The notes under the pieces are model-generated. The model was not told the origin of the DNA and did no database searches. It was given only the letters and a program-made list of their open reading frames with translations. This document shows positions 28,053 through 48,268 of a DNA stretch of 64,000 nucleotides, piece by piece. A program made the translations under genes and the position numbers. Source of the DNA: Microgenomates group bacterium GW2011_GWC1_46_15 (GTDB lineage Bacteria > Patescibacteriota > Microgenomatia > UBA1400 > UBA12028); contig LCLX01000001.1 in the NCBI GenBank assembly GCA_001002285.1, positions 30 to 64,029 of the forward strand, written 5' to 3'. Within the stretch, counting starts at the first letter, position 1; the number at the start of each line of letters is the position of its first letter.

Positions 28053-28100
28053 AAGTAATACATATTGACAAAGTATTACTTTATATAGTAGTATTACCAC

Positions 28101-28331
28101 ATGCACACAGCAACAATAACACAAAAAGGGCAAATAACGATTCCCTTGGTCTTGAGGGAAGCCTTTGGATTAAGAGCGTACGGTAAAGCCAGGCTGGAAC
28201 AAGGAGATGGTTTCATCAAGGTATACGCGCAGGAGGACATTTTGGATTTAGTTGATACATTTGTTCCCAAAGTGAAAAAACCACTCATGAAAACCCGCGA
28301 GGCGTTTGAAAAGAAATATACGAGGTTTTAA
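28101..28331 (+). CDS. AbrB/SpoVT-type antitoxin (VapB-like)
   Basis: 76 aa; ITQKGQITIPLVLREAFGL swapped-hairpin motif; overlaps PIN gene start (ATGA). Confidence 0.65.
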   Translation: MHTATITQKGQITIPLVLREAFGLRAYGKARLEQGDGFIKVYAQEDILDLVDTFVPKVKKPLMKTREAFEKKYTRF

Positions 28332-28750: not shown

Positions 28751-28756
28751 TATTGA

Positions 28757-30169: not shown

Positions 30170-30191
30170 TATTGCATGGTAAAATAACGGT

Positions 30192-32738
30192 ATGAATCCA
30201 GGATCGGGCTTATCAGGTTTTGAGAGAGGGAGATATTTTGATGCTCCAAAAGATGCTGGTGGCAACGTTATTCAACCCACCGCGTTAAACGAAATTAAAC
30301 TAGATGGCCAGCATCCCTACGTTGCCGTAGATCTTTGGGAACAGTATTCTCTTGATCGGCTTCGAGAAAAAGAATCTTTCATTAGAGAGGCATTAATTTT
30401 ATTAAATGCGGCGAAATCTCATCCAAAAATAACACCAGAAGATTTGGCGGCAATAGAACAGCTATCGAAACGAATTACAGACATTATTGCGAGACTTCCG
30501 GAAAAAGAAAAAGGAACAGACACAATAAAAAAATATTTACTTCGAAGAAAATCAATAGACCAAGTAACCTACGAGAGACTTACAACAACAGAGGCTGGTG
30601 CACGAGCAATTGCGAGAATGCTTATTGACGAAATGCATGTGCAAATAGGGATTATCCAAGACTCAGACAAAATTTATATTAACTCGGATATTGCATCTTG
30701 GAAATTTGAAATACAATCAGGACTAGAAACAGATCTCAAGTCCTTAGGAGAGTCTCTTCAGTCTTTAAGTCCAAGCCACGAAAAAATAGGAGAGCAGTTT
30801 CTCACAGATCTTTTTGCCATTTCGAAGTTAACAAAACTATGTAATGGATTAGAGAGTACACAAAAGAATGCTAAAGGAACGGCGGAGTATCTTGATAGTA
30901 TTAAAGTTCATCTCACAGACGGACAGAAAAAAAGAATAATTGCCATAGCTGGAAAGGAATATTGCGAGAAAGATGGAAGGTATTTAGCGCAGGATGTTCA
31001 TGATGCCTTAGTAATGTATGAGGCTTTATGTGCTCCAGAAATAATGACTATTGAAACGGAAGATGGAACAATTATTCATGGATATCCTGTTAAAACTAAA
31101 TATAATGCATTTCCCCAAAGTATCGCTTCAAATATAGAAATAAGATACGCAATTAGAAGAGCAATAGGTGCGATTCGTGGAGAAAATCCCACAGAACTTG
31201 GGCAATTGGGACGCGACTTGACTGTAGCTCTTGCAGAAAAAGATCCAAAAGAAAAAAGAAGAAAGATAAAAAAACTTTTAGAAGAGAATATTTCTTTTTA
31301 TAAGGAAAAGGCAAAAACAGATGAAAAAGCAAAAATGGACGATGCGGGAACAACAAAACATTCTTGGTTTGCGGAACTAATGGCGATTAATTATCTTGAA
31401 GGAGAAGTATATTCTGCGCATTATGATGCTGGACAAATAAAAAAGGACTCAAGCGGACAACCTATTCTTGGAAGCAGTGGCTATCCAATCATTGATCGCT
31501 TCGGTGGATGCGCCGCAACGTATAAGTTTGCCGTTGTTACTAATGCGGCGGCCGGCATGGCGAAATATAGTATTCCCGGAGAAGCGGAGCGAGGAGACCC
31601 AGGACCACCAATCTTAAGAAATATTTTAGTTGCTCCACTACTTCCATTAGATGAATACCTTTTTATTGAGGAAGGGAAGCGTGGGACAGCGAGCAGATTA
31701 ATGGGAATGACTTTACGTGAAGCAATTTTTAATACAACCTCTGCAGAAGAATTAGAACAGGTTTGGAATAGTTCCGCAGAGAATCTTATTAACGCAGATG
31801 AACAAGTTCAGGGGGCCATACATGAGGGGTGGGCATTTTGGGAGATGATGGTGAAGGGTATGGGAATTAAATTTTCTAAGATTGCCCACGTTGCTGAATG
31901 GTCAGAGGGACTTGACATAGAAATAGATCCATCCATAGAAACCAAATTAAAGGGGGTGTCGAGCGGAATAGAATACTGGCTAATAAGGGATAATATTAGA
32001 AATAAAAATTCTATTCAAAAACTTTTTGTGAAAGAATTTGGATCAGGAACCGATTGGAGAAAAGAATACATAAGATACAAAAAGTTCGAGGCAGTTGTAG
32101 TTGGGATAAAAAGGAGCGGGGGAGATGTTGATTTAGCGGTTCAGCAATTTCAAAGAAATGAAGGATTAACACAAAATATTGTGGACACATACAAAAAAAT
32201 ATACAACGAATTGCGCAAAATTGCCTCACAGGACTTTGATTTGGCGGAGGGTTGGGATAAGGGATCTCCTGGCGAAAATGATGAATATTTTATGAGATTT
32301 TCTGAGCGCGTGTTCACAAGAATTTTTGGTATTGATATAAAACAGACCAAGGAAGGAAAGTATGGAGAATTTGTTAAAGAAATTTTCAAAAATGACGTAA
32401 CTGATTGGATAAGGACAATGAAAAAATTTGTTATAGGGCTTCTTGTTATAGGACAAATACAACTCAATAAAGAGGCAGCAAACATTCAAAAAGATGATGT
32501 GCTCGCTATAAAAGCAATGTTAAATTATGATTTTTGGCACCATGAGCAAGAACGGCTTTCCGTGAAAATAGTGAGAGCGATGCGGGGAATTAGTGGTAAA
32601 ACAATTGAATTTACCGGAGTTGGTCTGTTTGAGCAAGATGAAGTTAATGCAATTATGAAAGATGCCGGAGTTCCGCGTGGAGTCATTGTTGACGCAGAGC
32701 ACGTGTGGAAAAGAGTACAGCAAATCAAACACGGTTAA
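30192..32738 (+). CDS. hypothetical large protein (ORFan), AT-rich island
   Basis: 848 aa, no recognisable catalytic motif; 23-nt spacing from upstream ORFan (operonic). Confidence 0.4.
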   Translation: MNPGSGLSGFERGRYFDAPKDAGGNVIQPTALNEIKLDGQHPYVAVDLWEQYSLDRLREKESFIREALILLNAAKSHPKITPEDLAAIEQLSKRITDIIARLPEKEKGTDTIKKYLLRRKSIDQVTYERLTTTEAGARAIARMLIDEMHVQIGIIQDSDKIYINSDIASWKFEIQSGLETDLKSLGESLQSLSPSHEKIGEQFLTDLFAISKLTKLCNGLESTQKNAKGTAEYLDSIKVHLTDGQKKRIIAIAGKEYCEKDGRYLAQDVHDALVMYEALCAPEIMTIETEDGTIIHGYPVKTKYNAFPQSIASNIEIRYAIRRAIGAIRGENPTELGQLGRDLTVALAEKDPKEKRRKIKKLLEENISFYKEKAKTDEKAKMDDAGTTKHSWFAELMAINYLEGEVYSAHYDAGQIKKDSSGQPILGSSGYPIIDRFGGCAATYKFAVVTNAAAGMAKYSIPGEAERGDPGPPILRNILVAPLLPLDEYLFIEEGKRGTASRLMGMTLREAIFNTTSAEELEQVWNSSAENLINADEQVQGAIHEGWAFWEMMVKGMGIKFSKIAHVAEWSEGLDIEIDPSIETKLKGVSSGIEYWLIRDNIRNKNSIQKLFVKEFGSGTDWRKEYIRYKKFEAVVVGIKRSGGDVDLAVQQFQRNEGLTQNIVDTYKKIYNELRKIASQDFDLAEGWDKGSPGENDEYFMRFSERVFTRIFGIDIKQTKEGKYGEFVKEIFKNDVTDWIRTMKKFVIGLLVIGQIQLNKEAANIQKDDVLAIKAMLNYDFWHHEQERLSVKIVRAMRGISGKTIEFTGVGLFEQDEVNAIMKDAGVPRGVIVDAEHVWKRVQQIKHG

Positions 32739-32749
32739 TTACTTCTGTC

Positions 32750-34531
32750 TTAAACTGGAAATCCCTCATCACCTTTTACCGATTCGTTCCTACTAGGCTG
32801 GAGATTTGAGATAGTTTCTTTACGCTTCTTTGTTTCAGGTGTCTCTGGCACTTTTTCTGGCGTGAGAACCTGACCAATTTGCTCCGCTATTTTAATATTT
32901 GTAATCTGCTGGTTAGCGAACTTCGCAACTTTATCAACTTGTGGTGCCACGTATTTTATTGTAGCAGGGGCAACAGCCCCAACGCCAGTTCCTATAAGTC
33001 CTCCAGCGAGCATTTTGCCAACACCCTGTCCACGTTGCGAATATGCACCAACAGCTGCCCCCCCAATAGCACCAAGAGAGGAAGTTGCTCCAAGAGAAAG
33101 CGCTTCTGGGAGGATTTTTCCCATTCCTGGTAATGTGGGACCAATTCCAGGGACCAGTTGTCCACCCTTCCATCCTTTACCCAGATTTTCTCCAATCTTC
33201 GGCAACCACTCATCCATCAATCCCTTCGCGCCAAGCCACTTTTTGCTCATCTCAACAGCCTCGGGGATAAGCATGAGAATGCCGAGGGCAATCAGACCAG
33301 ACGCAGCGCCGGAAAATCCATCACCCACTGTAATTTGTGGAGCCTGGAACCCACCGGTATCACCCGCGCGGTATCCAATACTTCCTTTTCCGCTTCCGCC
33401 AAGCGCGAGTGCAAGGAAAATCATCACGATCACAACGGGGAACGGCAATAATGTCGCAGCAAGGTTTTTTATCCATTGCACAAAATCTCCGCCGTCTTTG
33501 AGCGCACCAAGCAGCAACTGGAACGGCGCAAAAATCACCGAAATAATGAATGTTACATAACTTTTCAATAATTCAAAAAAGGTTTTGATGACTGCAAAAA
33601 ACATGGCAACTGCGATAATGACATACCCAACGACACCGACTGATTTTCCAACGATGTTTGATGCAAAATCTCCAGTATTTGCGAAAAGGTTTTCCGCAAT
33701 ATCTCCAATTGCTTTTGCCGCACCACCAACAACACTCCCCTTTACTCCGCTGTCACCGATACCAAAAATAAGACCGAGACCATTTGTTACAATATCTCTT
33801 GATAGTGCGATGTCAATCAATGTAAGATTATCTCCAAACTTCGATGTATCAATCAAATTTGCAAACACCCCCGTGATGAAGTAAATCACAAGATACATGA
33901 TGTCGATCATGAAGCCGGCGATGGCATACGAAAACGTAATCAGTAGCAGCGTAATCACGAGGTTGGGGAGCGCGTTACTAATGGTAATCACGGTTTGGCC
34001 GTGCAAATTCTTGCGGAACATAATCATGAACCCAATCGCGATAAACACGAGGACAAACACAACGTACGAAAGATCGCGGAACGCTTTCCACACAGGCAAG
34101 ATGGGGTTCAAGCTCTTGAATCCGATGCCCTGCGCGTACGCCTGTGAAACAAGCGGAGAGTGTTGAAGAAGATCAGCAAGCCACAACTCGCCACTCGCAG
34201 GCGGGTTTTTAATCATCATCGCGATAGCATTTCCCATCTCAGGGACAACGCCCTTGACAACGTACTGGCCTTTTTCATCTTGCACGCCCAGCAACATTGC
34301 CCCAATGCCGCCAACTTGTGAGCCGGTGGTGTAGAGGGTGGCCGACTCAAGAGGATACGTTCCGGTTCTTGCGCTGTTGATGATGGTTTGGTCAAACGTC
34401 TGTTTCGAGGGGACAGCTTCGGCCTGCGCGTACGCAATGGGGGTGGCAAAAAACACAACAGCAAAAACGCCCAAAAACACCGCAAATATTGCGCAAAAAA
34501 ACCGGCGGCCAAACTTCCTCATATGTTTCAC
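32750..34531 (-). CDS. polytopic membrane protein, VirB6/TrbL-like (topology- and context-based)
   Basis: 593 aa; signal peptide, periplasmic domain, about 7 TM helices, Gly-rich C-terminal region. Confidence 0.4.
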   Translation of the reverse strand: MKHMRKFGRRFFCAIFAVFLGVFAVVFFATPIAYAQAEAVPSKQTFDQTIINSARTGTYPLESATLYTTGSQVGGIGAMLLGVQDEKGQYVVKGVVPEMGNAIAMMIKNPPASGELWLADLLQHSPLVSQAYAQGIGFKSLNPILPVWKAFRDLSYVVFVLVFIAIGFMIMFRKNLHGQTVITISNALPNLVITLLLITFSYAIAGFMIDIMYLVIYFITGVFANLIDTSKFGDNLTLIDIALSRDIVTNGLGLIFGIGDSGVKGSVVGGAAKAIGDIAENLFANTGDFASNIVGKSVGVVGYVIIAVAMFFAVIKTFFELLKSYVTFIISVIFAPFQLLLGALKDGGDFVQWIKNLAATLLPFPVVIVMIFLALALGGSGKGSIGYRAGDTGGFQAPQITVGDGFSGAASGLIALGILMLIPEAVEMSKKWLGAKGLMDEWLPKIGENLGKGWKGGQLVPGIGPTLPGMGKILPEALSLGATSSLGAIGGAAVGAYSQRGQGVGKMLAGGLIGTGVGAVAPATIKYVAPQVDKVAKFANQQITNIKIAEQIGQVLTPEKVPETPETKKRKETISNLQPSRNESVKGDEGFPV

Positions 34532-34611
34532 ATTTTACTGGCATCGTGAAGGGAACGCAACACACCTCTTTCTAGTAAAAAGACATCTTGACAAAAATAA
34601 ATCATTGTATA

Positions 34612-35248: not shown

Positions 35249-38200
35249 ATGCGGCTACGCTCAAAAATTTCTTTTTTCGTCTCCAGGGAACCCTCCACCC
35301 TGAGTTCCTCAAAAAGGAAATATCTCGCATATTGTATTTTTCTCATCATACTTTTTGCTTTTGAAATTTTTGCCACGCTTGCACCGATCAAAGCATTTGC
35401 CGCGGGTAACGTTCTTGGCACACACCTCGCATTTTTTGACCCGGGCAATCAAATTCGCATCCTTCAGTTCATTAAGTCGCTCAAACCACCCGCACAGTAT
35501 CCTATAACCGCGGTTGCGGAAATCAGTTGGGGAGAGGACAGTAATAATTCGCTCACCAGCCTAGTGGCGGAGCTAAACGCAGGGGATTATGCAATTAACC
35601 TTCGTATTGCTGGACTGGCAGCGGACACAACACCAGCTCAGGTGGTCGCGCTCGCACAAAAACTCAATCAAGTTACATGGGTGTATGGCAAACCCATCAT
35701 CATTTTTGGAAACGAAGATAATAATATTGATGTTGAGTGGTATTTTTCTGATCTTAGCGTTGCATCAGCAAAGTACGCCGAGTTATTTACCGCGTTCGCG
35801 GGTGCGTTGGACACATCTAAAATGGATTTGTCTGCCGCGCCAATTCCAGAACACCCCAAATATCCACAAAGCGCGTTTTTAAACGGCGCGGCAACCGTAT
35901 TTAAAAGTCCAAAAATTTCAGCATTTGTATTTAACTTGTACGACAACGGCGCTGGCTCGTTTGAGCCGTCCGGGTGGAGAACTCAGCAAGCCTTTGAGGG
36001 GATTAAGCCTCGCAAAGTATTAACCGAGTTTGGTCCAAACCCGCAAAATCCAGCAGACAATACATATAAAAATTGGTCGGAGTTCCTCAAGAAATATGAA
36101 AATACCCTTCCTGAGGGGTTCCAAACCGCAACGGTGTTAGTCCCGAACTTGTGCGATAAAACGACAACGCTCGCGAATCAGTGGTACTACTACATTCTCG
36201 GCAATTTTTACGACTCAAACCTCAATGAAATTGATGAGTCATGTTCAGCGCAAACGGGAACCGTAATTTTTCCTGGGCCTGACGATATTCTTTCCTCTTG
36301 TGCAGCAACAGGCGGTGGTGCGGCGTGCGAGTCAAAGTTTCAGGAAGTTGCATCAAAGTACATGATGACGTGCTCGCCCGTTATTACGTTTAAGCCGAGC
36401 ATTGATCCCGCAGGCGAGGAAATTAAAATAGGGTCGTTTGTGGGAACGCTTCTTGATTATTGTGCGAACAGGCAGTCGGATAACAACTGTATTTTTGATC
36501 CGGTAAAAAACACGATTGATGTGAATGCGTCTAGTGCGACATTCCCGTATATACGGAGCCAAACTCCTGGCCGCACGGGTAGCCTTGAAGGATTTTTTAC
36601 CACGGATACCCAGCGTACGCGGACCAATGTAAATGATTTTACACAGTACTCACCGCTTTCCAAACTTCAACCAGCGGGATTAACGTGCAAGCAAAATATC
36701 CAACAACTTGAGTCCGTGGAAACGTTGTGCCGCGAGTTTTCTGATCCACTGAAACAAGGAAGAATGGCGGATAACCAACCGTCACTTGTTGAGAAATTCC
36801 GGTCTGCGCTTGGGCTTAAACCTGGCGCTTGCGACCTTAATGCAACAATTGATGGAAAAAAGTACCTCGATATCTTGAAAGATGTGCGGGATACAATGGG
36901 TGGCAATGCACAAAGCTATTGTACTTCTGACACATTTTTACATCCGCAGGCAGATACAGAAACTACATTGGTGAAACTCGTCATGCGGGTACAGCCGGTA
37001 CTCCGTGCGGCATATAAAAAAGCGTACTTTGTTATTTATCTCCAAGCGCCTTCAGAAAATACGGATGCGGCATCAGCATTAATAAGCGCGCTTTTTCACA
37101 CAAAAGACAAAGGTCAGGAGCTTTTCAAAGTCGTTCCCGTGCTCATTCCCGCAACGTTTGGATCACAGAAGGACGACAGCGATATTTACCGCATTGACGG
37201 AACAAAAGTTGAGGGAGCGTCGTTTAACGGAGCATACACACAAACAATTTCTCCACTCTTGAGTGGAAATGCACAAAAGAATATCTCAGATAAACTTATT
37301 GAGGATGAACAAACCATCTTTTCCCAAATGCAGAGATTGGGTGGGTCGGCACCGGGGAATCCTGACTTACTTAATGTTTCTGGATGTGTTCCAGGGCCAG
37401 AAAGTCAAACATCACTTGCATGCCAGTTTGCTTCCCGCGTAAACGCAGGGCTACAAAAACATGAGTTTACAATTCCAAATCAAAAGGGAACGTGCGAGTT
37501 TCACGAAGAAGTTGCTGGTGGGCAAACTGCACAGGTTTTAAACACGCCGGTTAAAGCAGGATTTTTAGACACCATTCTTGCATTTTTCTCCTCACTCTTT
37601 GAACCACAAAAGTCCGACATAAGTGTTACGGGAAATATTAACGCAGGAAAACTTGACGAGATTTCGGAAGAACAGGCAAAACTCCGCGTCTTTTTGCTTA
37701 TTCCACGCTCAGAATTCGGCCTTATTAAATACACGGAAAAAGCATTATACCAGGCGATTGTTCCGGATGCGGCGTCACAAAAAGTTTTTACGGAAGTAAA
37801 AGAGGGAAAGATTTTAGACACGAATGAGTTTTTACGGACACAGGGAGTGATGTTGAATGAACAGGGTGGCGCAAAACGTTCGTATTTAACAAACGCATCA
37901 CCCGCGCCCGTTATTCCTCCCGCAACACCTGTGCCGATCACGACAGAACTGACCGCGTCGTTCAAGCCCCAAGGAGACGCAAACCCGCTTCTGTATGGAG
38001 GGTGGTTAGCGCGCATGATTCACTCGTTTACCGCAAACGTGCTTGCTCCCGTAGCCTCAACAATTTATGATGCCAGCTACGAAACAACGAAAGGTTTAGA
38101 GAACTATTGGTTAAGGGGGGGGAAAGGAATGGGTTTGAACTACGGCAAGGAAATTACCTCATGCGATGGATACCGTCAGCAAACAACGATGATGCCCAAC

Positions 38201-38710
38201 ATTGCTGGAGTGAAACAGCAAATTTGTGACGTTGCCACAAAATATAACATTCCATATCAAGTGCTTTGGGGAACGTTTAAGATCGAAGGAGGGCGCGCGA
38301 GATCACGTGCATATAATGGCGGCGGGACGGTTGCTTGCAGCGTGAACTCTGTTGGAGCGGTTGGACCATTGCAGCATCTCGAAGATATCTGTCGCCCCGG
38401 CCAGATATCGCAGGAAAATGAAGCTCAAGGGAAAAATGTATGCGATTTTAATATTGGACTGGACGTAACGGCGCAAATTTATAAACGCTTTACCAATGAT
38501 CCGAATTATCAATATGCAGACGGGAAACCAAATTGGTATTGGATAACGGGGGAGTATAACATGGGTGGTAAAGTAACAGGATTTGGGCCCAAGTGCGAAG
38601 GTGCGCCAGCGACCGACGGATGTAATGGAGCAAACTATTGCGTCTGTGCAATAGAAACATTTGCAGATGAGATTTCTTGTCCCAATGCTCCGGAATTACT
38701 GAATATATAA
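35249..38710 (+). CDS. large secreted protein with C-terminal lysozyme-like/SLT-type domain (VirB1-like candidate)
   Basis: 1153 aa; signal peptide/TM; C-terminal KIEGGRARSRAYNGGGTVACSVNSVGAVGPLQHLEDI resembles the ES...GA.GLMQ transglycosylase motif. Confidence 0.45.
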   Translation: MRLRSKISFFVSREPSTLSSSKRKYLAYCIFLIILFAFEIFATLAPIKAFAAGNVLGTHLAFFDPGNQIRILQFIKSLKPPAQYPITAVAEISWGEDSNNSLTSLVAELNAGDYAINLRIAGLAADTTPAQVVALAQKLNQVTWVYGKPIIIFGNEDNNIDVEWYFSDLSVASAKYAELFTAFAGALDTSKMDLSAAPIPEHPKYPQSAFLNGAATVFKSPKISAFVFNLYDNGAGSFEPSGWRTQQAFEGIKPRKVLTEFGPNPQNPADNTYKNWSEFLKKYENTLPEGFQTATVLVPNLCDKTTTLANQWYYYILGNFYDSNLNEIDESCSAQTGTVIFPGPDDILSSCAATGGGAACESKFQEVASKYMMTCSPVITFKPSIDPAGEEIKIGSFVGTLLDYCANRQSDNNCIFDPVKNTIDVNASSATFPYIRSQTPGRTGSLEGFFTTDTQRTRTNVNDFTQYSPLSKLQPAGLTCKQNIQQLESVETLCREFSDPLKQGRMADNQPSLVEKFRSALGLKPGACDLNATIDGKKYLDILKDVRDTMGGNAQSYCTSDTFLHPQADTETTLVKLVMRVQPVLRAAYKKAYFVIYLQAPSENTDAASALISALFHTKDKGQELFKVVPVLIPATFGSQKDDSDIYRIDGTKVEGASFNGAYTQTISPLLSGNAQKNISDKLIEDEQTIFSQMQRLGGSAPGNPDLLNVSGCVPGPESQTSLACQFASRVNAGLQKHEFTIPNQKGTCEFHEEVAGGQTAQVLNTPVKAGFLDTILAFFSSLFEPQKSDISVTGNINAGKLDEISEEQAKLRVFLLIPRSEFGLIKYTEKALYQAIVPDAASQKVFTEVKEGKILDTNEFLRTQGVMLNEQGGAKRSYLTNASPAPVIPPATPVPITTELTASFKPQGDANPLLYGGWLARMIHSFTANVLAPVASTIYDASYETTKGLENYWLRGGKGMGLNYGKEITSCDGYRQQTTMMPNIAGVKQQICDVATKYNIPYQVLWGTFKIEGGRARSRAYNGGGTVACSVNSVGAVGPLQHLEDICRPGQISQENEAQGKNVCDFNIGLDVTAQIYKRFTNDPNYQYADGKPNWYWITGEYNMGGKVTGFGPKCEGAPATDGCNGANYCVCAIETFADEISCPNAPELLNI

Positions 38711-38714
38711 ACAC

Positions 38715-39149
38715 TTACGGTTGCACGATCCTAAAAATCGTGATTTTTTCACCTACCCCCGTGAACACACTAATAAAGTTAATAATAATCCAACCGAGAA
38801 GGGCAACGACAATACCGGTAATGGCCATCGTAAGCGTTTTCTTTGCCGCATCAGTTGATTTTGGATTTCCACCAGAGGTGAGATACAAAAACGAACCAAT
38901 CAGCAACATCACAAACGCGGCAATGCCAATTGCGGTCATTGCAATACCAAGAATGTTTTGAACGACACACTCAGCGCCTTGTAGCGTGGCAACATCAGCG
39001 GTTCCTTCCGGAACTGTTTCAGTAGAGACACATCCGGACTGGATATCTTTCCATGACTTTGTTACTTGGGCGTGTGCCGGAGTTGGAGATGCTAAAACAG
39101 TGGCGAAGCAAAATACTGCAACAACGGAAGAAAAAAGAAACTTTCTCAT
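38715..39149 (-). CDS. T4SS pilin-like (VirB2/TrbC-like) protein with extended Cys-containing N-terminal domain (ORF track extends start to 39179)
   Basis: Signal peptide MRKFLFSSVVAVFCFATVLA; C-terminal LIGSFLYLTSGGNPKSTDAAKKTLTMAITGIVVALLGWIIINF matches paralog motif. Confidence 0.5.
   Translation of the reverse strand: MRKFLFSSVVAVFCFATVLASPTPAHAQVTKSWKDIQSGCVSTETVPEGTADVATLQGAECVVQNILGIAMTAIGIAAFVMLLIGSFLYLTSGGNPKSTDAAKKTLTMAITGIVVALLGWIIINFISVFTGVGEKITIFRIVQP
38725..38750 (+). terminator. rho-independent terminator (CACGAT-7 nt loop-ATCGTG + ATTTTTT)
   Basis: Perfect 6-bp stem plus T-run 15 nt after stop of the 1153-aa gene. Confidence 0.5.
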
Positions 39150-39183
39150 GGGGTCAATTGTAGCATACACGAAAACCAAAAGA

Positions 39184-39213
39184 CCTCCCTTGCGGGAGGC
39201 CTTCCAATTTCAA
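39184..39213 (-). terminator. rho-independent terminator (CCTCCCGCAAGGGAGG + TCTTTTGGTTTT on minus strand)
   Basis: Hairpin plus U-rich tail downstream of pilin gene 39258-39593. Confidence 0.5.
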
Positions 39214-39257
39214 ATCCCCTTTCAGAGGATTCTCTCTGTACACGGAAAAATTAAATT

Positions 39258-39593
39258 TTAGTACAACGGTTTAATGTTACTCAGATTGAAAATATCAATG
39301 CCGAACAAGAACGCGACAACCTGCATAAGCGCGTAGGACGCTGCAACAATGGCAAGGCCAACAAGCGCCGCGGTGATTTTTCCTCGAGCTGCTTCTGTCT
39401 TTCCCTTATCTCCGCCGGAAGTAATCCACTCAATGCCTCCGAGCACGAGATATGCGAACACGAGAATCGCGGCAACAATCAATGCGATTCCAAGGACGCG
39501 GGAAAACAACAAACCCAGATCAGTAATCAAAAACCCATTAGCCCTTGGGTCAATTGTAATAGGTGGCTTTGCCTGTGCAATCAACGCGAACAT
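39258..39593 (-). CDS. T4SS pilin-like small membrane protein (paralog 2)
   Basis: LVLGGIEWITSGGDKGKTEAARGKITAALVGLAIVAASYAL; two TM helices. Confidence 0.55.
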   Translation of the reverse strand: MFALIAQAKPPITIDPRANGFLITDLGLLFSRVLGIALIVAAILVFAYLVLGGIEWITSGGDKGKTEAARGKITAALVGLAIVAASYALMQVVAFLFGIDIFNLSNIKPLY

Positions 39594-39637
39594 ATTCCTC
39601 CTTTATTCACACGTATACCTGTATTGTACGGCGTGTT

Positions 39638-39949
39638 TTATAGTTTGACAATATCAATCCCAAACAGATACTGCAAGAGCCCAAAAAATGCAAACGATGC
39701 TGCGGTAATTGTTAACCCAATGATAGCGTTCGTGATGTCCTGGCGCGCGGCATCGAGTTTTCCTTTGTCTCCGCCGGCCGTTGTCCACTTTAGGCCGCCA
39801 AGAACGAGAAATGCAAACGTCGCAATGCCAGCCAATATTAAGCCAAAACCAGCAAATCTTCCAATAAATATACCCAAATCAAACTGCGTGTTCGGTGAAA
39901 CTTTTGCGAGTTCACCCCCGATGTCTACCGTTGCTTGAAAAAGTGTCAT
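39638..39949 (-). CDS. T4SS pilin-like small membrane protein (paralog 3)
   Basis: LVLGGLKWTTAGGDKGKLDAARQDITNAIIGLTITAASFAF. Confidence 0.55.
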   Translation of the reverse strand: MTLFQATVDIGGELAKVSPNTQFDLGIFIGRFAGFGLILAGIATFAFLVLGGLKWTTAGGDKGKLDAARQDITNAIIGLTITAASFAFFGLLQYLFGIDIVKL

Positions 39950-39983
39950 AAAAGTTTCTTTCTATTTTGTCGTTCCACCATTA

Positions 39984-40337
39984 TTAATTAAGCACACTAA
40001 AATCTGGCTTCAATAAATTAATGCCAAGCGGCCCACTCAGGAATGTGCTGATTGCCGCGACAGAACTCAACACAACAAATCCGATAACCGCTTGAATGAT
40101 GCGCTCTTTTGCTTGCTCAATCTTTCCTTTTTCTCCACCCGCGGTAATCCAGTAGAATCCGCCAACGAGAAGATACAAAATAATGCCGAGACCACCCACA
40201 ATAATGGCGGTCTGCCAGAGGACAGCAATATATTTTGCCAGTACGCCAGCTGCCGCGGCTGGAGTACTTGCATTCGACACATCGCCCGGTAACGCGGGGT
40301 TTGTAATTTGCGTGACAAGTGTTGACAAAATTATCAT
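39984..40337 (-). CDS. T4SS pilin-like small membrane protein (paralog 4)
   Basis: LLVGGFYWITAGGEKGKIEQAKERIIQAVIGFVVLSSVAAI. Confidence 0.55.
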   Translation of the reverse strand: MIILSTLVTQITNPALPGDVSNASTPAAAAGVLAKYIAVLWQTAIIVGGLGIILYLLVGGFYWITAGGEKGKIEQAKERIIQAVIGFVVLSSVAAISTFLSGPLGINLLKPDFSVLN

Positions 40338-40711
40338 TTAAACAACCCTCCAAGTGCCGTTGCGGGATTTAAGATACTCAATCCGAGCACACCACCCACA
40401 ATCCCAATAATGGCTTGTGAAACAATAACGATAATAAGCCCAATTGCGGCGTTTGTTAACTGTGTGCGCGCTGCCTCAACTTTACCCTTTTCACCGCCAG
40501 CCGAAAGCCACGCGAGACCTCCGAACACAAAGTACATGAGGAACATAAGACCGCCAACGATTGTGAAGAAACCAAGGAGGACGGAGAGAAACTGCTCGAT
40601 GGGTTGGCCGCCGACATTTGCGCCACTGGCATCGAAATTAGGTTGGAAGTTTTCCGCTCCTGGTCCGGTAATGGTTCCTTCAAGTGGATTTTGTGCAAGA
40701 AATGTTTTCAT
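40334..40711 (-). CDS. T4SS pilin-like small membrane protein (paralog 5)
   Basis: FVFGGLAWLSAGGEKGKVEAARTQLTNAAIGLIIVIVSQAI. Confidence 0.55.
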   Translation of the reverse strand: MKTFLAQNPLEGTITGPGAENFQPNFDASGANVGGQPIEQFLSVLLGFFTIVGGLMFLMYFVFGGLAWLSAGGEKGKVEAARTQLTNAAIGLIIVIVSQAIIGIVGGVLGLSILNPATALGGLFK

Positions 40712-40717
40712 ATTAAT

Positions 40718-41140
40718 TTATAAGTATTCGTTTTGTCCCCCACCACCGCCCCCACCTGGTGTTTGAATTGTTTCTTCCGGTCCCTTCAACTGTGGTTTCA
40801 AGAAAAACGTTGGATCCTTAAACAACACCCACCCCATCACCGCCATAATTGCTGGTGCCATAATCATCAACACAATGCCAAGCAAGCTCATGTTTAACTT
40901 GCTTAGTACTTTTTCGTGTGCCTTTGCGTCACCAGAACCAGTTAAGTAAAGATACCCAGCAGTGATAATATTGAATAGTGCGAACAACCCGCCCGATAAC
41001 ACAATAAGCGTAAGCATATTAGAGATAAAAACAATAAGACCGCCGCTTGTCCCATATGCTTTAAGTGCTTCGGGTTGCGTAATTGTTCCAAAAAAAGTTT
41101 CCATTTCACTCGATGTTTGTGCGAGAAATGTTGTTAGCAT
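40718..41140 (-). CDS. divergent pilin-like small membrane protein (paralog 6)
   Basis: YLYLTGSGDAKAHEKVLSKLNMSLLGIVLMIMAPAIMAV; C-terminal GGGGGG tail. Confidence 0.4.
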   Translation of the reverse strand: MLTTFLAQTSSEMETFFGTITQPEALKAYGTSGGLIVFISNMLTLIVLSGGLFALFNIITAGYLYLTGSGDAKAHEKVLSKLNMSLLGIVLMIMAPAIMAVMGWVLFKDPTFFLKPQLKGPEETIQTPGGGGGGGQNEYL

Positions 41141-41161
41141 AATAAGTTCTTCTATCGTGCG

Positions 41162-41482
41162 TTAAAACGATAAAATCTGCAACCCCGTTACAATTTGTAT
41201 GATCTGGATGATCCAGTACGACGCAAAGATTACGAGAAATCCAATGACCGCGCCGGTAATCGCCTGTGTTCCTTTTTCAAGTCCTTTTGGATCTCCTCCT
41301 GAGGAAATTATACTGAACCCACCAAACACAAGCAAGGCAAACACAATAAGTCCGGCGGCGATGTACGCGTTGGGCAACAATGTATTAATGAAGGCGGCAG
41401 GAGTTCCAAACGTGTCGGCAACAGTTTGAGTTTTATTGAGAAGAAATTTCTCTTTTAAATTAACTGCAGCCAAGAGATTCAT
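41162..41482 (-). CDS. T4SS pilin-like small membrane protein (paralog 7)
   Basis: LLVFGGFSIISSGGDPKGLEKGTQAITGAVIGFLVIFASYWIIQIIQIVTGLQILSF. Confidence 0.55.
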   Translation of the reverse strand: MNLLAAVNLKEKFLLNKTQTVADTFGTPAAFINTLLPNAYIAAGLIVFALLVFGGFSIISSGGDPKGLEKGTQAITGAVIGFLVIFASYWIIQIIQIVTGLQILSF

Positions 41483-41514
41483 ACTGATATTGTAGCACAG
41501 GGCAAGTTCGGGAC

Positions 41515-41907
41515 TTACTGCGTAGTTCCCGACCCCGTTGCTGTTTGTCCCGCGGTTGGTGTTGGCGAAGGTGTTGGTGTTGGACTAGGATTGTTTTTTG
41601 CCGCTCCACCGCCCCCGCCGTTGCCATTTTTGCCAACTTCTTCAACTTCTTGCGTCACTGTAAACGACGCTAACTCATCGACACTAAATATTCTTCGCTT
41701 CTTAAGATCTTCAAGCGCCTGCGTGTTAATAATGGGACTCAACGAAAGAATTTGTTGTTTCACATTCGGCGTGAGCGTATTTTTACGCAGTGAAAAATAC
41801 ACGCCCAATCCAATCCATACAACCGCGGCGAGCAAGCCGAACACAAGAATGTACAGCAGATCTTTACGCTTGAGGAGTGATGAAAGTTTTGACGTGTTTG
41901 GGTTCAT
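41515..41907 (-). CDS. small membrane protein with Gly-rich and TPTPSPTPT low-complexity C-terminus
   Basis: 130 aa, single TM. Confidence 0.35.
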   Translation of the reverse strand: MNPNTSKLSSLLKRKDLLYILVFGLLAAVVWIGLGVYFSLRKNTLTPNVKQQILSLSPIINTQALEDLKKRRIFSVDELASFTVTQEVEEVGKNGNGGGGGAAKNNPSPTPTPSPTPTAGQTATGSGTTQ

Positions 41908-41924: not shown

Positions 41925-42674
41925 TTATTTCTTTACTGCCACTGGAGCAACTCCATAGTATGCGGCTCTCAGTGTTGCCTTTGCTTGCAGGAGAGGGTTG
42001 GTTTGAACGACTGCCGCTCCGCGCGCGGTTTGCTGATCTTGTTGATTAATAATGAGCGTATCTACGGTTAAGTATCGGTCAGCGGAAAGAAGTGCTTGAA
42101 AAAAGTCATGAATGTCTAAGTAGGAACCTTTAACCGAAATAGTGAGAAGGAATGCGGTAACGGCATTTTGTTGGGGCACCGCGGGGGTTGCTGACGAAGT
42201 TTTTGCTGCTGGTTTTTGCCCAGGTTGTGCCGATTGTTCTGGGGTTTGACCGTCAGGAGTTGTTTCGCGCGGAACGCTACTGGTTTGAACGCTGGAAAGC
42301 ACAACGTTGTGTTCTGATGCAATTTTTTCAATCCGGCGAAGTAACCCATCAATATCCGGTGTATTTGGAAGAGCAAGATCAAGCAGCGCTAAATCTTTTT
42401 GAAGCGCGAGTACCTCATTGCTTGTGGTGGAAAGCGCGGCGATTTTCTTTGTGAGCGCCTGGTCGGTCGTCTTTCTATCAGCAATATCTTTGAGCAATTG
42501 AGACATTGTGGTCAGCGTTGGCCCGATGGCGGCGAGCGCTAAAAACATAACCGCCACGATGGTAATAATGAGTTCAGTGGAAACTTTCGCGATGGGTTTT
42601 TGGTAGAACTTTTGCAGTTCCTGCATCGAGCGGTTACGGATCATGCTGAAGGTGACGCGGATTGGTGTGCTCAT
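41925..42674 (-). CDS. type IV pilus assembly protein PilO-like
   Basis: 249 aa; N-terminal TM, coiled coil, C-terminal LTISVKGSYLDIHDFFQALLSADRYLTVDTLII PilO-like. Confidence 0.5.
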   Translation of the reverse strand: MSTPIRVTFSMIRNRSMQELQKFYQKPIAKVSTELIITIVAVMFLALAAIGPTLTTMSQLLKDIADRKTTDQALTKKIAALSTTSNEVLALQKDLALLDLALPNTPDIDGLLRRIEKIASEHNVVLSSVQTSSVPRETTPDGQTPEQSAQPGQKPAAKTSSATPAVPQQNAVTAFLLTISVKGSYLDIHDFFQALLSADRYLTVDTLIINQQDQQTARGAAVVQTNPLLQAKATLRAAYYGVAPVAVKK

Positions 42675-42691: not shown

Positions 42692-43240
42692 TTATTTTGC
42701 CAGCGCGATCCTCATCGTAAACTCAAATCCCGCTAGCCCCTGGTCCGAGCTTTTTACTTGATCAACAACGAGACCTTTTACAAGTGATTTTCTCTGTAAA
42801 TTTACGATAAAGATCGCCAAATCTTTAGATGACGGCGCTGTTCCCACAACCTGCACTTGTTGGTCATGGAGTTGTGTAACAGAAAGAACAACATTTGGAG
42901 GAATAAGTGTGGAAACAACGTCAAGAATGTCCAGCGGTGTGAGTAGCGCTTTTTGCTGGGTCAAAAACTCTGTTTTCTTTTGAATTGTTCGTATATCGTT
43001 TTCGAGTGATCCATACGAGCTGATGAGGTTAGATTTTTGAGTAATGCCAGAATTGAGATCGGTGAGATCGCGGTCCAGTTTAAACCGCGTCGCAAAGCTG
43101 ATAATCACGACGAGTTCAGTAAAAACCACGAGGTATCGCCCAATGTTTGATGCCCACAGCAACATCCGTCCAAGCGCCGTTTCGTAAAACGGGTCCTGCG
43201 GCATAAGATTAATAGAAAGTGGGCGAGGCTTTGTTGTCAT
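42692..43240 (-). CDS. type IV pilus assembly protein PilN-like (ORF track start 43561 probably over-extended)
   Basis: Start at MTTKPRPLSINLMPQD; TM, coiled coil, PilN-like C-terminus. Confidence 0.5.
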   Translation of the reverse strand: MTTKPRPLSINLMPQDPFYETALGRMLLWASNIGRYLVVFTELVVIISFATRFKLDRDLTDLNSGITQKSNLISSYGSLENDIRTIQKKTEFLTQQKALLTPLDILDVVSTLIPPNVVLSVTQLHDQQVQVVGTAPSSKDLAIFIVNLQRKSLVKGLVVDQVKSSDQGLAGFEFTMRIALAK

Positions 43241-43296
43241 GGTGTTGGTGTACGATGGGAGTACAATACAGGCTGTCCATTTCGTACGGAAAAAGT

Positions 43297-43839
43297 ATGA
43301 CAGAAAACACACTGATCTTCCAGCTGAAAAAGGGGAGCGCGCAGGCGGTGGAACGGTGGTACGCGGAGTACTCCAAACGACTATTCCGTTTTGTTGTGTT
43401 AAAAGTGTCAAATACACACGATGCCGAGGAGATTTGCCATGATACGTTTTTATCCTGCCTAGAAAGTCTGCCGGTGTTCCGCGAAAACTCCTCATTGTGG
43501 ACGTGGATGTGTTCGGTCGCGCGGCACGAAATTGCTGATTACTTCCGCAAGCGCTACGCAAAAAAATTGTTACGCATGGTGCCGTTTAGCGATGCGGTGT
43601 TGCCCGAAAGTTATCTTGATATGCATGAAACATCAGATGCAGTGCGCGCCGTTTTACATGCTTTGCCGATCCGTGACCGCGAACTTCTCATCTTGAAGTA
43701 TATTGATCGGTTGAGTGTGCAGAACATTGCCAGCAAGCTAAATATGAAGTTTAAGGCTGTTGAGTCGGCGTTGTTCCGCGCGCGCAAGGCGTTTCAGGCG
43801 GTATATGCGCAGCAAGAAGAAAACGTTGAGGAAAAGTAA
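43297..43839 (+). CDS. ECF-type RNA polymerase sigma-70 family factor (ORF track start 43219)
   Basis: Region 2 FRFVVLKVSNTHDAEEICHDTFL; region 4 HTH LSVQNIASKLNMKFKAVESALFRARKAF. Confidence 0.8.
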   Translation: MTENTLIFQLKKGSAQAVERWYAEYSKRLFRFVVLKVSNTHDAEEICHDTFLSCLESLPVFRENSSLWTWMCSVARHEIADYFRKRYAKKLLRMVPFSDAVLPESYLDMHETSDAVRAVLHALPIRDRELLILKYIDRLSVQNIASKLNMKFKAVESALFRARKAFQAVYAQQEENVEEK

Positions 43840-45559: not shown

Positions 45560-46379
45560 GCGTCATACTCTATGTATGAAAAAGAAAAACGTTGTTCTCA
45601 TCAAACTCGGCGGCTCTATTATCACCAACAAAGATATTCCCATGTCGTTACGGCAGGACGCATTAGATAGATTAGTGCATGAAATTGTCCGCGCACGCCA
45701 AGAGCAAAAAGACACATTGTTCGTCGTTGGCCACGGCCAGGGGAGTTTTGCCCACGTGCCGGCGGTGAAGTATCAAACAATGCAGGGATTTGTGAACGAT
45801 GAAAGCCCAATGGGTATGGCGATTGTTCAGGACTCTGCGGCTCAACTCAACCGCATCGTTGTCCGCGCGTTTCTTCAGCAAGGAGTCCCCGCGGTGTCGT
45901 TATACCCAAGCAATAGCCTGGTTACGAACGCGCGCAAACCAGTAGCATACTTTACCGATGTATTCGAGCAGTATCTCCGCCTAGGAATGTTTCCTGTAAC
46001 GGGCGGTGACGTGATTGCAGATGAAAAACAAGGGTGCACGATTTGGTCCACAGAGGAAGTGTTGTCATTTTTTGCTCAGCAGTTTGTTAAAAAAGGATGG
46101 CACATTACAGGTATTTTTCATATTGTTGAAGTTGATGGCGTGTATGATCTCAACAAGCGCCTGGTTTCAAGGATCACGTACAAAAATTGGCCAAAAATAA
46201 AACAGGCGATTACCTGTACAAAGGGATTTGATGTGACCGGCGGAATGGGATTAAAGGTTGAGGAGTCATTGGCACTCGCAAAACTCGGGATTCCATCAAA
46301 TATTCTTTCGGGACTTGTAAAAGACAATGTGTACAACGCTTTGGTTGGAAAACAGTGGAAAGGGACAGAAATCCTCTAG
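45549..46379 (+). CDS. isopentenyl phosphate kinase (amino-acid-kinase fold; archaeal-type mevalonate pathway enzyme)
   Basis: LIKLGGSIITNK, VVGHGQGSFAHVPAVKY, PAVSLYPS, DVTGGMGLKV, C-terminal GTEI; aligns motif-by-motif with archaeal IPK. Confidence 0.75.
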   Translation: MRFKRHTLCMKKKNVVLIKLGGSIITNKDIPMSLRQDALDRLVHEIVRARQEQKDTLFVVGHGQGSFAHVPAVKYQTMQGFVNDESPMGMAIVQDSAAQLNRIVVRAFLQQGVPAVSLYPSNSLVTNARKPVAYFTDVFEQYLRLGMFPVTGGDVIADEKQGCTIWSTEEVLSFFAQQFVKKGWHITGIFHIVEVDGVYDLNKRLVSRITYKNWPKIKQAITCTKGFDVTGGMGLKVEESLALAKLGIPSNILSGLVKDNVYNALVGKQWKGTEIL

Positions 46380-46401
46380 AGATTCTGGTACAATACTGCC
46401 T

Positions 46402-47106
46402 ATGAACGCCTCGAAAAACACCATAAAACACATCGCCATCATCATGGATGGCAACCGCAGATGGGCAAAAAAACAGGGGTTGGGTGCAATCAATGGTCAC
46501 CAGCATGTTGTAGATAATATTATCGAGCCACTCGTTGATCGGTGCATCGAACTCGGGATCAAATACCTCACGTTTTGGGCGTTCAGCACAGAAAACTGGG
46601 AGCGCGACAAAATGGAGCTGGAAGGCATGATGCAGTTGTTTCGCCACGCATTTGAGCGGAAAGTTGAAGATCTGCATAAAAAAGGAGTACGGCTGCAGAT
46701 TTTAGGTGAAATTGATAAGTTTCCAAAAGACATTGCGGAGCAGGCGAGGCGGTGGGTAGAGATTTCTAAAAACAACACAAATATTACTGCGAGTTTTGCG
46801 CTCAACTATGGTGGCCGCGACGAAATCACGCGCGCGATCAAAAAGATGGTGCAGCTCAATCCAAGTTTAGTTGCTAATCAAGTGACCGAACAAAAAATTC
46901 AGTCATATCTTGATACCACTGATATGCCTGATCCCGACTTAATTATCCGCCCCGGTGGCCAACTCCGGCTTTCCGGATTTATGCCATGGCAGGGAGTGTA
47001 TAGCGAGTTGTACTTCACTGATGTGTTGATGCCTGAGTTTACCGTTGCGGAGTTAGACAAAGCATTAGCTGATTTTACCGCGCGCCAAAGACGGTTTGGA
47101 AAATAA
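46402..47106 (+). CDS. uppS: undecaprenyl-diphosphate synthase (ORF track start 46327)
   Basis: HIAIIMDGNRRWA, YLTFWAFSTENWERD, IRPGGQLRLSGFMPWQ. Confidence 0.9.
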   Translation: MNASKNTIKHIAIIMDGNRRWAKKQGLGAINGHQHVVDNIIEPLVDRCIELGIKYLTFWAFSTENWERDKMELEGMMQLFRHAFERKVEDLHKKGVRLQILGEIDKFPKDIAEQARRWVEISKNNTNITASFALNYGGRDEITRAIKKMVQLNPSLVANQVTEQKIQSYLDTTDMPDPDLIIRPGGQLRLSGFMPWQGVYSELYFTDVLMPEFTVAELDKALADFTARQRRFGK

Positions 47107-47139: not shown

Positions 47140-47502
47140 TTACCCAAGAATGGTAATGCCGAACACAATTTGAAGAAGTTGTGCAATCCAGTACGATGCG
47201 AAAAGAAGAACAAATCCGATGACCGCTGCCGTCATGCGCTGCTTTCCCGCTTCTTGTGATTTTGGTTCCGCTGCACCAGTGAGCATTTCGAACCCACCCC
47301 AAATGAACATGAGAAAAAGGATAATCCCGCCAAAAGTGAGAAGGTACGGAAGGAGCGCAGAAAGAATGCCGCCGGGGGTATCAAGACCTTCCTTGAGGCC
47401 AATCGCGCCTTCGATGGTAGACATAATTTCGGAAGTTGCTCCGCCAGAACTTCTCCCAAAAGGATTTGCCCCGCCATTTTGTGCAAGAAGCATACCAATC
47501 AT
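47140..47502 (-). CDS. T4SS pilin-like small membrane protein (paralog 8, remote from main array)
   Basis: LMFIWGGFEMLTGAAEPKSQEAGKQRMTAAVIGFVLLFASYWIAQLLQIVFGITILG, near-identical C-terminus to paralog 7. Confidence 0.5.
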   Translation of the reverse strand: MIGMLLAQNGGANPFGRSSGGATSEIMSTIEGAIGLKEGLDTPGGILSALLPYLLTFGGIILFLMFIWGGFEMLTGAAEPKSQEAGKQRMTAAVIGFVLLFASYWIAQLLQIVFGITILG

Positions 47503-47512
47503 ATGACGACCC

Positions 47513-48268
47513 TCAAAATCCTGGGATCTGCAACACCGTGATCCCTATTGTTTTTAATAGTACCATCGAAAAGATGATGAAGAGTAACCCGCTTACCGCC
47601 GCGGTAATTTTATTCTTCGCTTCTTCCGTCGCTTTTGGGTCACCTTTGCTTGTTGTAAGTTGAAAAGCGGCCGCCAACGTCTTGAGGAGTACGATGCCCC
47701 CGCCCATGCTAAGTGCGAGGCGGACAAAGGCGGTGAGGATTCCATTTGAGTCTGTTGGAATGCAACCGATCGCGGTCCAAACACCATCTTTATTTGAACA
47801 ATTTTCACACTGGATTCTTGCAGTATCGTCGGAAACCCGGGCACAGAGTTTAAAAGAGGGGGTATTCCATGTCAATGGATCTTCGGTTTTGTATAGACAC
47901 ACAAAAGATCCATCTGCCGTTTCTTTTGGGATTGTATTTGCGTCACGACAGTGCTGGCTTCGGAGTCTTGTGACTTCATACCTAAAACACGCTGGTTGTC
48001 CGTGCTCACCGCAATCCGGATTTGGAGAGCATGTACATACCCCGATTGCGCCAACTCCGAGACATATTTTTGTGTCTGGTATTTCTGTTGGATCTGTACA
48101 TATGGCAACACACCCAAATGGTCCGCAGTTCGGGAGACCTGATAATCCACAAATATTAACGCCGAGACATGAAGACGCTTCTACTGGGGAGAGGTGACCT
48201 GAACGGAGGAAAAGTAGAGATGTTGCGAACATGGAAACGACAAACAAAATAAATGTATTCACTTTCAT
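47513..48268 (-). CDS. secreted Cys-rich protein fused to a pilin-like C-terminal module (possible minor/tip pilin or adhesin)
   Basis: 251 aa; signal peptide; about 20 Cys in N-terminal 170 aa; C-terminal LLKTLAAAFQLTTSKGDPKATEEAKNKITAAVSGLLFIIFSMVLL matches pilin paralog motif. Confidence 0.5.
   Translation of the reverse strand: MKVNTFILFVVSMFATSLLFLRSGHLSPVEASSCLGVNICGLSGLPNCGPFGCVAICTDPTEIPDTKICLGVGAIGVCTCSPNPDCGEHGQPACFRYEVTRLRSQHCRDANTIPKETADGSFVCLYKTEDPLTWNTPSFKLCARVSDDTARIQCENCSNKDGVWTAIGCIPTDSNGILTAFVRLALSMGGGIVLLKTLAAAFQLTTSKGDPKATEEAKNKITAAVSGLLFIIFSMVLLKTIGITVLQIPGF

Follow-up and report, generated by a model that had tools for sequence, protein, structure and literature searches.

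Seven ancient, ordered VirB2-like (PF18895) pilin paralogs in a Microgenomates genome

The stretch analyzed here, 64,000 nucleotides of the genome of Microgenomates group bacterium GW2011_GWC1_46_15 (the window), carries on its minus strand, between positions 38715 and 41482, a tandem array of seven small genes encoding VirB2-like, pilin-like proteins of the kind associated with type IV secretion systems (T4SSs). A sequence-only reading of the same DNA had proposed seven minus-strand genes for two-helix proteins at this place. The listing of open reading frames (ORFs) confirmed all seven at the coordinates it gave, and hydropathy profiles and matches to the Pfam family PF18895 (T4SS_pilin) bore out the rest of that description. 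Numbered as types in the direction of transcription, the genes are the following (E values refer to PF18895 unless stated otherwise).

41162-41482, minus strand: type 1 pilin-like paralog, 106 aa; first gene of the putative operon; short leader (mini-leader) MNLLAA, loop SGGDPKG; E 3e-5
40718-41140, minus strand: type 2 pilin-like paralog, 140 aa; E 3e-4; 57% identity to L001_g2
40334-40711, minus strand: type 3 pilin-like paralog, 125 aa; signature IIGIVGGVLG..ILNP; E 2e-7, above the cutoff
39984-40337, minus strand: type 4 pilin-like paralog, 117 aa; signature ITNP...YIAVLWQT; E 6.5e-9, above the cutoff
39638-39949, minus strand: type 5 pilin-like paralog, 103 aa; nearest paralog is type 6 (53% identity); E 7e-5
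39258-39593, minus strand: type 6 pilin-like paralog, 111 aa; PF18895 match; hairpin model; AAGGAGG ribosome-binding site
38715-39149, minus strand: type 7 pilin-like paralog, 144 aa from ATG; E 9e-10; TrbC E 0.067

Five of the six intergenic gaps measure -4 to 44 nt, with types 3 and 4 overlapping by 4 nt, whereas 108 nt separate 39258-39593 from 38715-39149; the earlier statement that all gaps are shorter than 50 nt is thus correct for five of them. For type 7, an alternative TTG start at 39179 would give a protein of 154 aa. All seven proteins have two strongly hydrophobic helices around a short charged loop, which carries +2 to +4 and -1 to -3 charges. The loop motif once taken to be common to all copies, GG..W.T/S.GGD/EKGK.E/DAAR/K, is exact in four of the seven, and the copies at 38715, 40718 and 41162 have the variants SGGNPKSTDAAKK, GSGDAKAHEKVLSK and SGGDPKGLEKGTQ, respectively. 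For the 39258 copy, AlphaFold2 modelling from 69 sequences gave a confident helical hairpin (residues 23-58 and 63-97) with a predicted local distance difference test score above 90 in the core. Type 2 diverges most from the other copies (signature FFGTI.QP...ALFNI...GD.K.HEK) and has a poly-Gly C-terminal tail. This C-terminus (40718-40760) is a Gly7 run, GGGGGGGQNEYL, and the ortholog in lineage L001 is shorter and has no such tail. Type 7 is built from a Sec-type signal peptide (..PAHA↓Q; the arrow marks the putative cut here and below), an exodomain of about 35 aa with a Cys pair, and the pilin hairpin. The Cys-containing N-terminal domain attributed to this copy is therefore real, and its Cys pair is kept in the orthologs.

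PF18895 matched all seven copies, with E values from 9e-10 to 3e-4. Against a gathering score of 26.6 bits, the copies at 38715 (38.9 bits), 39984 (36.2 bits) and 40334 (31.5 bits) lay above the threshold, and the other four reached 21-24 bits (E 3e-5 to 3e-4). Since PF18895 is an independent model that matches all seven, a chance similarity between hydrophobic peptides is excluded. Homologs also bear PF18895 labels in precomputed annotation. All 69 homologs of the 39258 copy also matched it (best E 1e-11), and 11 of these 69 matched PF04956 (TrbC/VirB2) at E <= 0.1 (best E 7.9e-6); among the window copies, the best E value for PF04956 was 0.067, for the 38715 copy. Judged from these profile scores, the similarity to PF04956 is one of relatedness to canonical TrbC/VirB2, not of membership. 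The nearest NCBIfam model was NF045849 (Mbov_0395, a pilin-like conjugal transfer protein of Mycoplasma integrative and conjugative elements), which matched four copies with E values of 7.5e-6 to 1e-3; all of these matches fell below its 40-bit cutoff, so the copies are not members of that equivalog. None of the nine family proteins in the window (the seven and two further copies described below) matched a PHROGs family, holins and other phage proteins included, at E <= 0.01, and a regular-expression scan of the same nine found no class III prepilin leader (G↓F...E). Likewise, no window copy matched a Pfam family of type IV pilins or of the type II secretion system (T2SS). A profile of the nine paralogs gave no meaningful sequence match among solved structures, and in a Foldseek search the sole pilus protein among the top matches was PDB 8dfu (rank 3, TMt 0.67), with a non-significant E value of about 2; because the hairpin fold is so simple, comparison with solved structures is uninformative. 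The proposal that these are VirB2/TrbC-like T4SS pilins and not holins thus held against the profile searches, and it agrees with the literature on this family (PMC12102498, PMC12857230).

Identity among the seven paralogs is 14-53%, which indicates that the duplications are old. In BLAST matrices against the arrays of a GWF2_45_18-like genus (L001), Woesebacteria (L004) and Collierbacteria (L006), the diagonal dominated, each position matching best the same position elsewhere. Identities to L001, L004 and L006 were 71, 60 and 55% at position 6 and 45, 50 and 45% at position 4, and every array position had its own conserved signature. Seven type-specific hidden Markov models (HMMs) were then applied to every pilin-domain ORF of 80 species-representative loci from GTDB genomes, without using position. 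The type order was exactly 1-2-3-4-5-6-7 in 36 of the 61 complete clusters and 1-2-3-4-6-6-7 in another seven; types 5 and 6, the closest paralogs, are told apart by the HMMs with low margins. A non-decreasing order was found in 51 of the 61, the remainder having local duplications, and extra duplicates of types 2 and 6 occurred occasionally in some lineages. Type 7 was missing from five complete clusters, all Woesebacteria-like, in which the array adjoins the PrgI, 334-aa and M23 genes. Orthologs were more similar than paralogs in every region of the protein (helix 1, 46 vs 24%; loop, 53 vs 38%; helix 2, 50 vs 28%), and the most variable parts were the N-terminal tails, which are presumably exposed. 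By these comparisons, the seven types go back to ancient duplications, after which their one-to-one orthology and their order were preserved. The tandem amplification, earlier called extreme, is accordingly not recent: the paralogs are ancient, have positional orthologs in other Microgenomatia, and keep a near-invariant order over the 80 loci.

Six independent assemblies of the same species contained the seven genes at identical lengths, with 99.9-100% nucleotide identity over 5.3 kb (0-6 differing positions) and no change in copy number. Compared with the closest other species (L014), the proportion of non-synonymous differences (pN) was 0.18-0.31 and that of synonymous differences (pS) 0.67-0.81. 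Because synonymous sites are saturated against L014 and the same-species copies are nearly identical, the comparison of helices with loops yields the bound pN << pS, which holds for every copy, together with the region-wise amino acid identities given above, and not dN/dS values by region. The pilins diverge from L014 no faster than the neighboring PilN, PilO and 130-aa (x130) genes. Neither within nor between the array genes were tandem repeats or simple-sequence tracts found, the longest run being one A7; the array contained no invertible repeats, and the longest DNA repeat between copies was 28 nt at 68-79% identity. One-to-one orthology, order, stability and purifying selection together speak against both antigenic or phase variation and a recent amplification. 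The antigenic diversification suggested from the sequence alone is not upheld by copies that are practically identical in the population, constant in number and devoid of switching substrates; functional diversification stands as an old, fixed sub-functionalization, not as ongoing variation.

The long leader of canonical pilins (about 30-50 aa) is not a feature of most copies, and a full signal peptide was found only in type 7 and in a 251-aa copy outside the array. Most of the others begin with 6-10 residues ending at a phi-x-A site, followed by Q or A; examples of these mini-leaders are MKTFLA↓Q, MLTTFLA↓Q, MFALIAQA↓K and MIGMLLA↓Q, and the type 4 copy (MIILSTLVTQ↓ITNP) is without Ala at that site. 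In five of the six array copies lacking a signal peptide, in-frame stops lie 0-7 codons upstream, and in the sixth, type 1, the upstream frame is open yet has no start codon, which rules out longer N-termini for all six. Among orthologs of the same type, some have a full Sec signal peptide and others a mini-leader, with the same mature N-terminus, as in type 4 (MKKILLFLSPISYLLSPSLAYA↓AITN... vs MSTNLLA↓AITN...) and type 6 (MKKALTVTSTLLSSLALATPAFA↓QTIGIEQP... vs MSLIPQAYA↓QTIGIPQP...). From this correspondence we infer a putative, signal-peptidase-like processing site at the end of the mini-leader. The mini-leaders appear to be a class of short leaders so far undescribed in VirB2-like pilins.

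Three candidate transcription signals accompany the array.

41489-41497, minus strand: extended -10 box TGCTACAAT, 6 nt before the type 1 ATG; putative operon promoter of leaderless type
39172-39211, minus strand: intrinsic-terminator-like hairpin with U-tract, 3' of type 6, at the putative end of a six-gene transcription unit
39157-39165, minus strand: extended -10 box TGCTACAAT, 7 nt before the type 7 ATG; putative promoter of leaderless type

The terminator stretch (92 nt) folded at -35.1 kcal/mol (z = -4.2), and none of 200 shuffled versions folded equally well. A generic scan for promoters and terminators returned fewer matches than in shuffled sequence and left undetected the terminator found by folding. 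With one box before type 1, another before type 7 and the hairpin between types 6 and 7, types 1-6 appear to form a single operon of the leaderless type and type 7 to be transcribed on its own, an arrangement that fits the absence of type 7 from some lineages. Across loci, 38% of type 7 genes have the generic TGnTAnAAT box no more than 25 nt from their start. The exact TGCTACAAT box occurs at five sites against 0.41 expected, and precedes the PrgI gene (20403-20411), type 1 and type 7. Co-regulation of T4SS genes through a shared promoter was considered and rejected, since many genes (PrgI, types 1 and 7, L25, UppS, a 1153-aa gene and others) have a TGnTAnAAT box 4-9 nt ahead of their ATG; a box so general in the genome indicates no T4SS-specific regulation. 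Its frequency points to a widespread use of leaderless mRNAs in this genome.

Translation signals set one gene apart. Within the window array, a strong AAGGAGG ribosome-binding site is present only before type 6, and across loci a strong Shine-Dalgarno sequence was found in 31% of type 6 genes compared with 0-9% in the other types. Type 6 is also the best-conserved type, with 55-84% identity to its orthologs, and this holds within each genome pair. The combination of the best conservation and the strongest ribosome-binding site makes type 6 the probable major subunit.

An HMM built from the seven cores raised the number of family copies in the window to nine, so that the earlier count of seven was right for the array and missed a tandem pair at 47140-48268.

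47140-47502, minus strand: eighth member, 120 aa, second gene of the pair; mini-leader MIGMLLA↓Q; HMM of the seven cores E 4e-21
47513-48268, minus strand: ninth member, 251 aa; HMM of the seven cores E 1e-10; PF18895 E 5e-4

In the 251-aa protein, a signal peptide is followed by a 16-Cys exodomain and, at the C-terminus, the pilin hairpin. The pair is flanked by UppS (46327-47106) and SpoIID (48332-50089), a placement that recurs in Collierbacteria (L006), in L014 and on a contig of the same species (L008).

Exact matches assign the window to a metagenome-assembled genome of Ca. Pacebacteria (Microgenomates). The window is chromosomal and lies near the replication origin, with dnaA/dnaN at 13320-16357. 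Beside these genes is a monoderm-type T4SS cluster (16360-26293, minus strand except for the TrsD-like gene), 20 kb from the array as measured to virB4.

16360-18288, minus strand: VirB4-like ATPase
18315-19337, plus strand: TrsD-like protein, separately encoded
19398-20396, minus strand: PrgI/VirB3-like protein
20430-21434, minus strand: 334-aa bitopic protein
21401-24508, minus strand: 1035-aa membrane protein with M23 peptidase domain
24515-26293, minus strand: 592-aa protein

The window ORFs that were scanned showed neither a relaxase nor a coupling protein. In relatives, the array and these genes stand together: it adjoins VirB4/TrsD/PrgI genes in L004/L005 and L020-L026, in line with the proposed association of this family with VirB4/VirB6 in genomes of the candidate phyla radiation. 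Homologs of the PrgI, 334-aa and M23 proteins adjoin the array in L020-L026 and L052, and in Collierbacteria PrgI and the VirB6-side genes are about 8 kb away. Over the 80 loci, a T4SS marker was found within 8 kb of the array in 13.

Upstream of the array are three co-oriented genes and a divergent regulator.

42692-43240, minus strand: PilN-like protein (Pfam PilN, 6e-9)
41925-42674, minus strand: PilO-like protein (Pfam PilO, 4e-9)
41515-41907, minus strand: 130-aa bitopic protein (x130) with a Pro/Thr-rich tail, directly upstream of the array
43219-43839, plus strand: sigma-70 family factor resembling the extracytoplasmic function class, divergent from PilN-PilO-x130 and the array

PilN-PilO-x130 adjoin the array only in the window, L001-3, L008, L014 and L016-19, a Pacebacteria-like lineage, and are absent from this place in Woesebacteria, Collierbacteria and most other of the 80 loci. 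No PilM, PilB or PilC was found near the PilN/PilO-like genes. In 34 of the 80 loci, including lineages without PilN/PilO, the marker closest to the array on its upstream side was a sigma factor homolog. In the window, genes for two small membrane proteins of 79 and 105 aa, which may be anti-sigma factors, come after the sigma gene on the plus strand, through 44395. The promoter-like box of the array itself is of housekeeping type despite this neighbor.

The array is an instance of an already published phenomenon. In a search of 3,035 Patescibacteria genomes for PF18895 and PF04956, Quinonero-Coronel et al. (2025; PMC12102498) described 441 'VirB2 arrays' of 2-11 pilin genes in 383 assemblies, commonest in Microgenomatia and Saccharimonadia, with a mean within-array identity of 25% (maximum 54%). 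They placed the Patescibacterial T4SS near dnaA and, by analogy with Bartonella and Anaplasma, suggested that the paralogs may give versatility toward host strains; the published reading also takes in variation resembling immune evasion. The locus described here shares with those arrays the PF18895 family, the tandem divergent paralogs, the Microgenomatia host and the VirB4/TrsD/PrgI genes near dnaA. Wang et al. (2023; PMC10633639) found an array of six genes to be essential in S. epibionticum: in transposon sequencing, SEML1_0014-0019 were each scored GD/ES/ES, the last gene included, although the scores of the upstream genes may partly reflect polarity, and the stand-alone pilin SEML1_0024 was non-essential. 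Compared with these six genes, the present genome has seven types and a separate pair; its array is not joined to the VirB6-side genes, and PilN/PilO-like genes precede it. A 2025 review (PMC12857230) describes six VirB2-like pilins of conserved structure and divergent sequence and considers a pilus on a Gram-positive-type T4SS possible. The general picture of these arrays is therefore unchanged. What the present analysis contributes is an ancient, ordered seven-type set under purifying selection and the mini-leaders; the text of PMC12102498 makes no mention of conserved type order, one-to-one orthology or mini-leaders.

Several known systems resemble the array in part. Canonical VirB2/TrbC/TraA proteins are likewise small, with two hydrophobic helices, a short basic loop, a mature N-terminus of the Ala↓Gln type and an association with VirB4. 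They are encoded by a single gene per system, belong to diderm machines and carry leaders of about 30-50 aa, whereas here there are seven genes, a monoderm-type system and mostly leaders of 6-10 aa. Mbov_0395 is also a small two-helix pilin-like protein beside VirB4, in a wall-less or monoderm system of the mating-pair formation class MPF-FATA, but it is a single gene in a mobile conjugative element, while the present genes are chromosomal. The archaeal Ced/Ted pili (PDB 8dfu, Aeropyrum pernix) share a VirB2-like helical hairpin and a cell without an outer membrane; their structural match to the array was the non-significant one noted above, and there is no evidence of shared gene content. The virB2 genes of Anaplasma, Bartonella and Rickettsiales, as cited in PMC12102498, also form several divergent, T4SS-linked tandem copies. 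They are interpreted as a source of antigenic or host-range variation, in contrast to the fixed order and orthology and the identical population copies found here.

The minor-pilin and pseudopilin operons GspG-K and FimU-PilVWXE consist of ancient, divergent, non-redundant paralogs in conserved order, with one major subunit plus others for priming or capping the fiber. Their likeness to the array is a functional analogy, not homology; the fold, the class III leader, PilD processing and the assembly ATPase are unrelated. We know of no VirB2-type pilus for which a heteromeric architecture with defined minor subunits has been shown, and to our knowledge the mini-leader class is likewise undescribed.

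Orthologs that keep their one-to-one correspondence in a fixed order point to non-redundant parts acting together, not to interchangeable variants. On this basis, we consider it probable that the locus is a conserved operon of seven distinct, co-acting VirB2-like (PF18895) subunits of a Patescibacterial monoderm-type T4SS. The individual essentiality of SEML1_0014-0019 is consistent with such non-redundant subunits. In the mechanism we envisage, the hairpins would insert into the membrane with the basic loop in the cytoplasm and both termini outside, as both the positive-inside rule and the analogy to VirB2, TraA and TrbC would suggest, and the leaders would be trimmed after insertion. A VirB4-driven machine could then pull the subunits from the membrane into a pilus or a wall-spanning conduit serving the episymbiotic lifestyle. 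One abundant major subunit, for which type 6 is the candidate, would be joined by scarcer accessory types acting in priming or initiation, at the base as adaptors, or at the tip; the exodomains of type 7 and the 251-aa copy, which would be disulfide-bonded, are candidate tip or adhesin domains for host contact.

A more specific proposal is made tentatively, and we hold it to be possible at best: a heteromeric VirB2-type structure of seven obligate types, with type 6 as the major subunit and the others as initiator, adaptor and tip, most of them carrying a mini-leader of 6-10 residues cut at phi-x-A. If this is true, the N-terminal tails would be inserted independently of Sec (YidC-type) and then cleaved by a signal-peptidase-I-like or TraF-like enzyme. 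Apart from this proposal, the evidence for a fixed, ordered set of orthologous types under purifying selection recasts the published "variable pilins" as "a defined multi-subunit apparatus". Predictions follow on the dominant type, the tip-located types and the mature N-termini, which can be tested in one tractable relative and in metaproteomes. Pilus-building by Gram-positive-type T4SSs and the role of the essential Patescibacterial T4SS in epibiotic life are regarded as open questions (PMC12857230).

The main rival to a pilus-like assembly is that the proteins are T4SS-associated yet stay in the membrane as channel subunits or assembly platforms, for instance in a hetero-oligomeric ring with the VirB6-like protein and without an extracellular pilus. 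Monoderm T4SSs normally lack pili (PMC12102498), the fold is merely a transmembrane hairpin with no specific pilin match, seven distinct subunits in a constant set would fit a defined complex just as they would a filament, and the arrays adjoin a VirB6-like gene in Saccharibacteria and Woesebacteria. Against these points stand the sequence homology to the pilus-forming TrbC/VirB2 and the exodomains of type 7 and the 251-aa copy, whose suggested disulfide bonding would suit surface display. Moreover, canonical VirB2 itself forms an inner-membrane pool before its extraction, so membrane residence is compatible with a pilus. On balance, we judge a purely membrane-resident role rather unlikely.

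That the copies are interchangeable variants for antigenic variation or a host-strain repertoire, as the sequence-only reading and PMC12102498 suggested, appears improbable. Such variants could account for the low within-array identity (14-53%), for the N-terminal tails being the most variable and presumably exposed parts, and for the occasional duplicates of types 2 and 6 in some lineages. They would not be expected to show positional orthologs in a near-invariant type order over 80 loci, six population samples without variation in copy number or sequence (99.9-100% identity), or pN << pS with no repeats, homopolymers or invertible elements; the genes of the Saccharibacterial array are, in addition, individually essential, six of six (PMC10633639).

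We regard it as very improbable that the array belongs to a type IV pilus or competence-pseudopilus machinery instead of a T4SS. PilN-PilO-x130 are co-oriented with it and precede it here and in the closest relatives, but none of the nine proteins has a class III leader, no type IV pilin or T2SS family matched, most of the 80 loci are flanked by the sigma factor or T4SS genes without PilN/PilO, and a separate promoter-like box for the array follows x130. A functional link to PilN/PilO was also rejected as a general explanation, the adjacency being lineage-specific. Hardly any credence can be given to unrelated small membrane proteins (holins, toxins, stress proteins) with PF18895 matches due to hydrophobic composition: several copies do fall below the Pfam threshold and weak matches to unrelated transmembrane families occur (E 1e-2 to 1e-4), but all 69 homologs match PF18895, to E 1e-11, the charged loop motif is conserved, no PHROG or holin matched and the T4SS linkage is recurrent.

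Some features around the array are recorded here as side observations. A gene for a 1153-aa protein (35249-38710, plus strand) is convergent with the array; the protein has one N-terminal hydrophobic segment, and it is also a neighbor in L016-19, L056, L063 and L092. Its C-terminus had been taken by eye for a lytic transglycosylase (VirB1-like), an assignment dropped when no Pfam, NCBIfam or PDB sequence match was obtained. The stretch at 26600-34600 has a low GC content (0.38-0.41 vs about 0.46 elsewhere) and a strong GC and AT skew at 28-32 kb. It contains an AbiEii toxin gene (27300-28052), a PIN gene (28331-28750) and genes for proteins of 470, 848 and 593 aa without family match, the 593-aa protein having many transmembrane segments. 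This stretch, situated between the T4SS cluster and the array, may be an insertion. A second AbiEii-family toxin gene lies at 54604-55308 on the minus strand.

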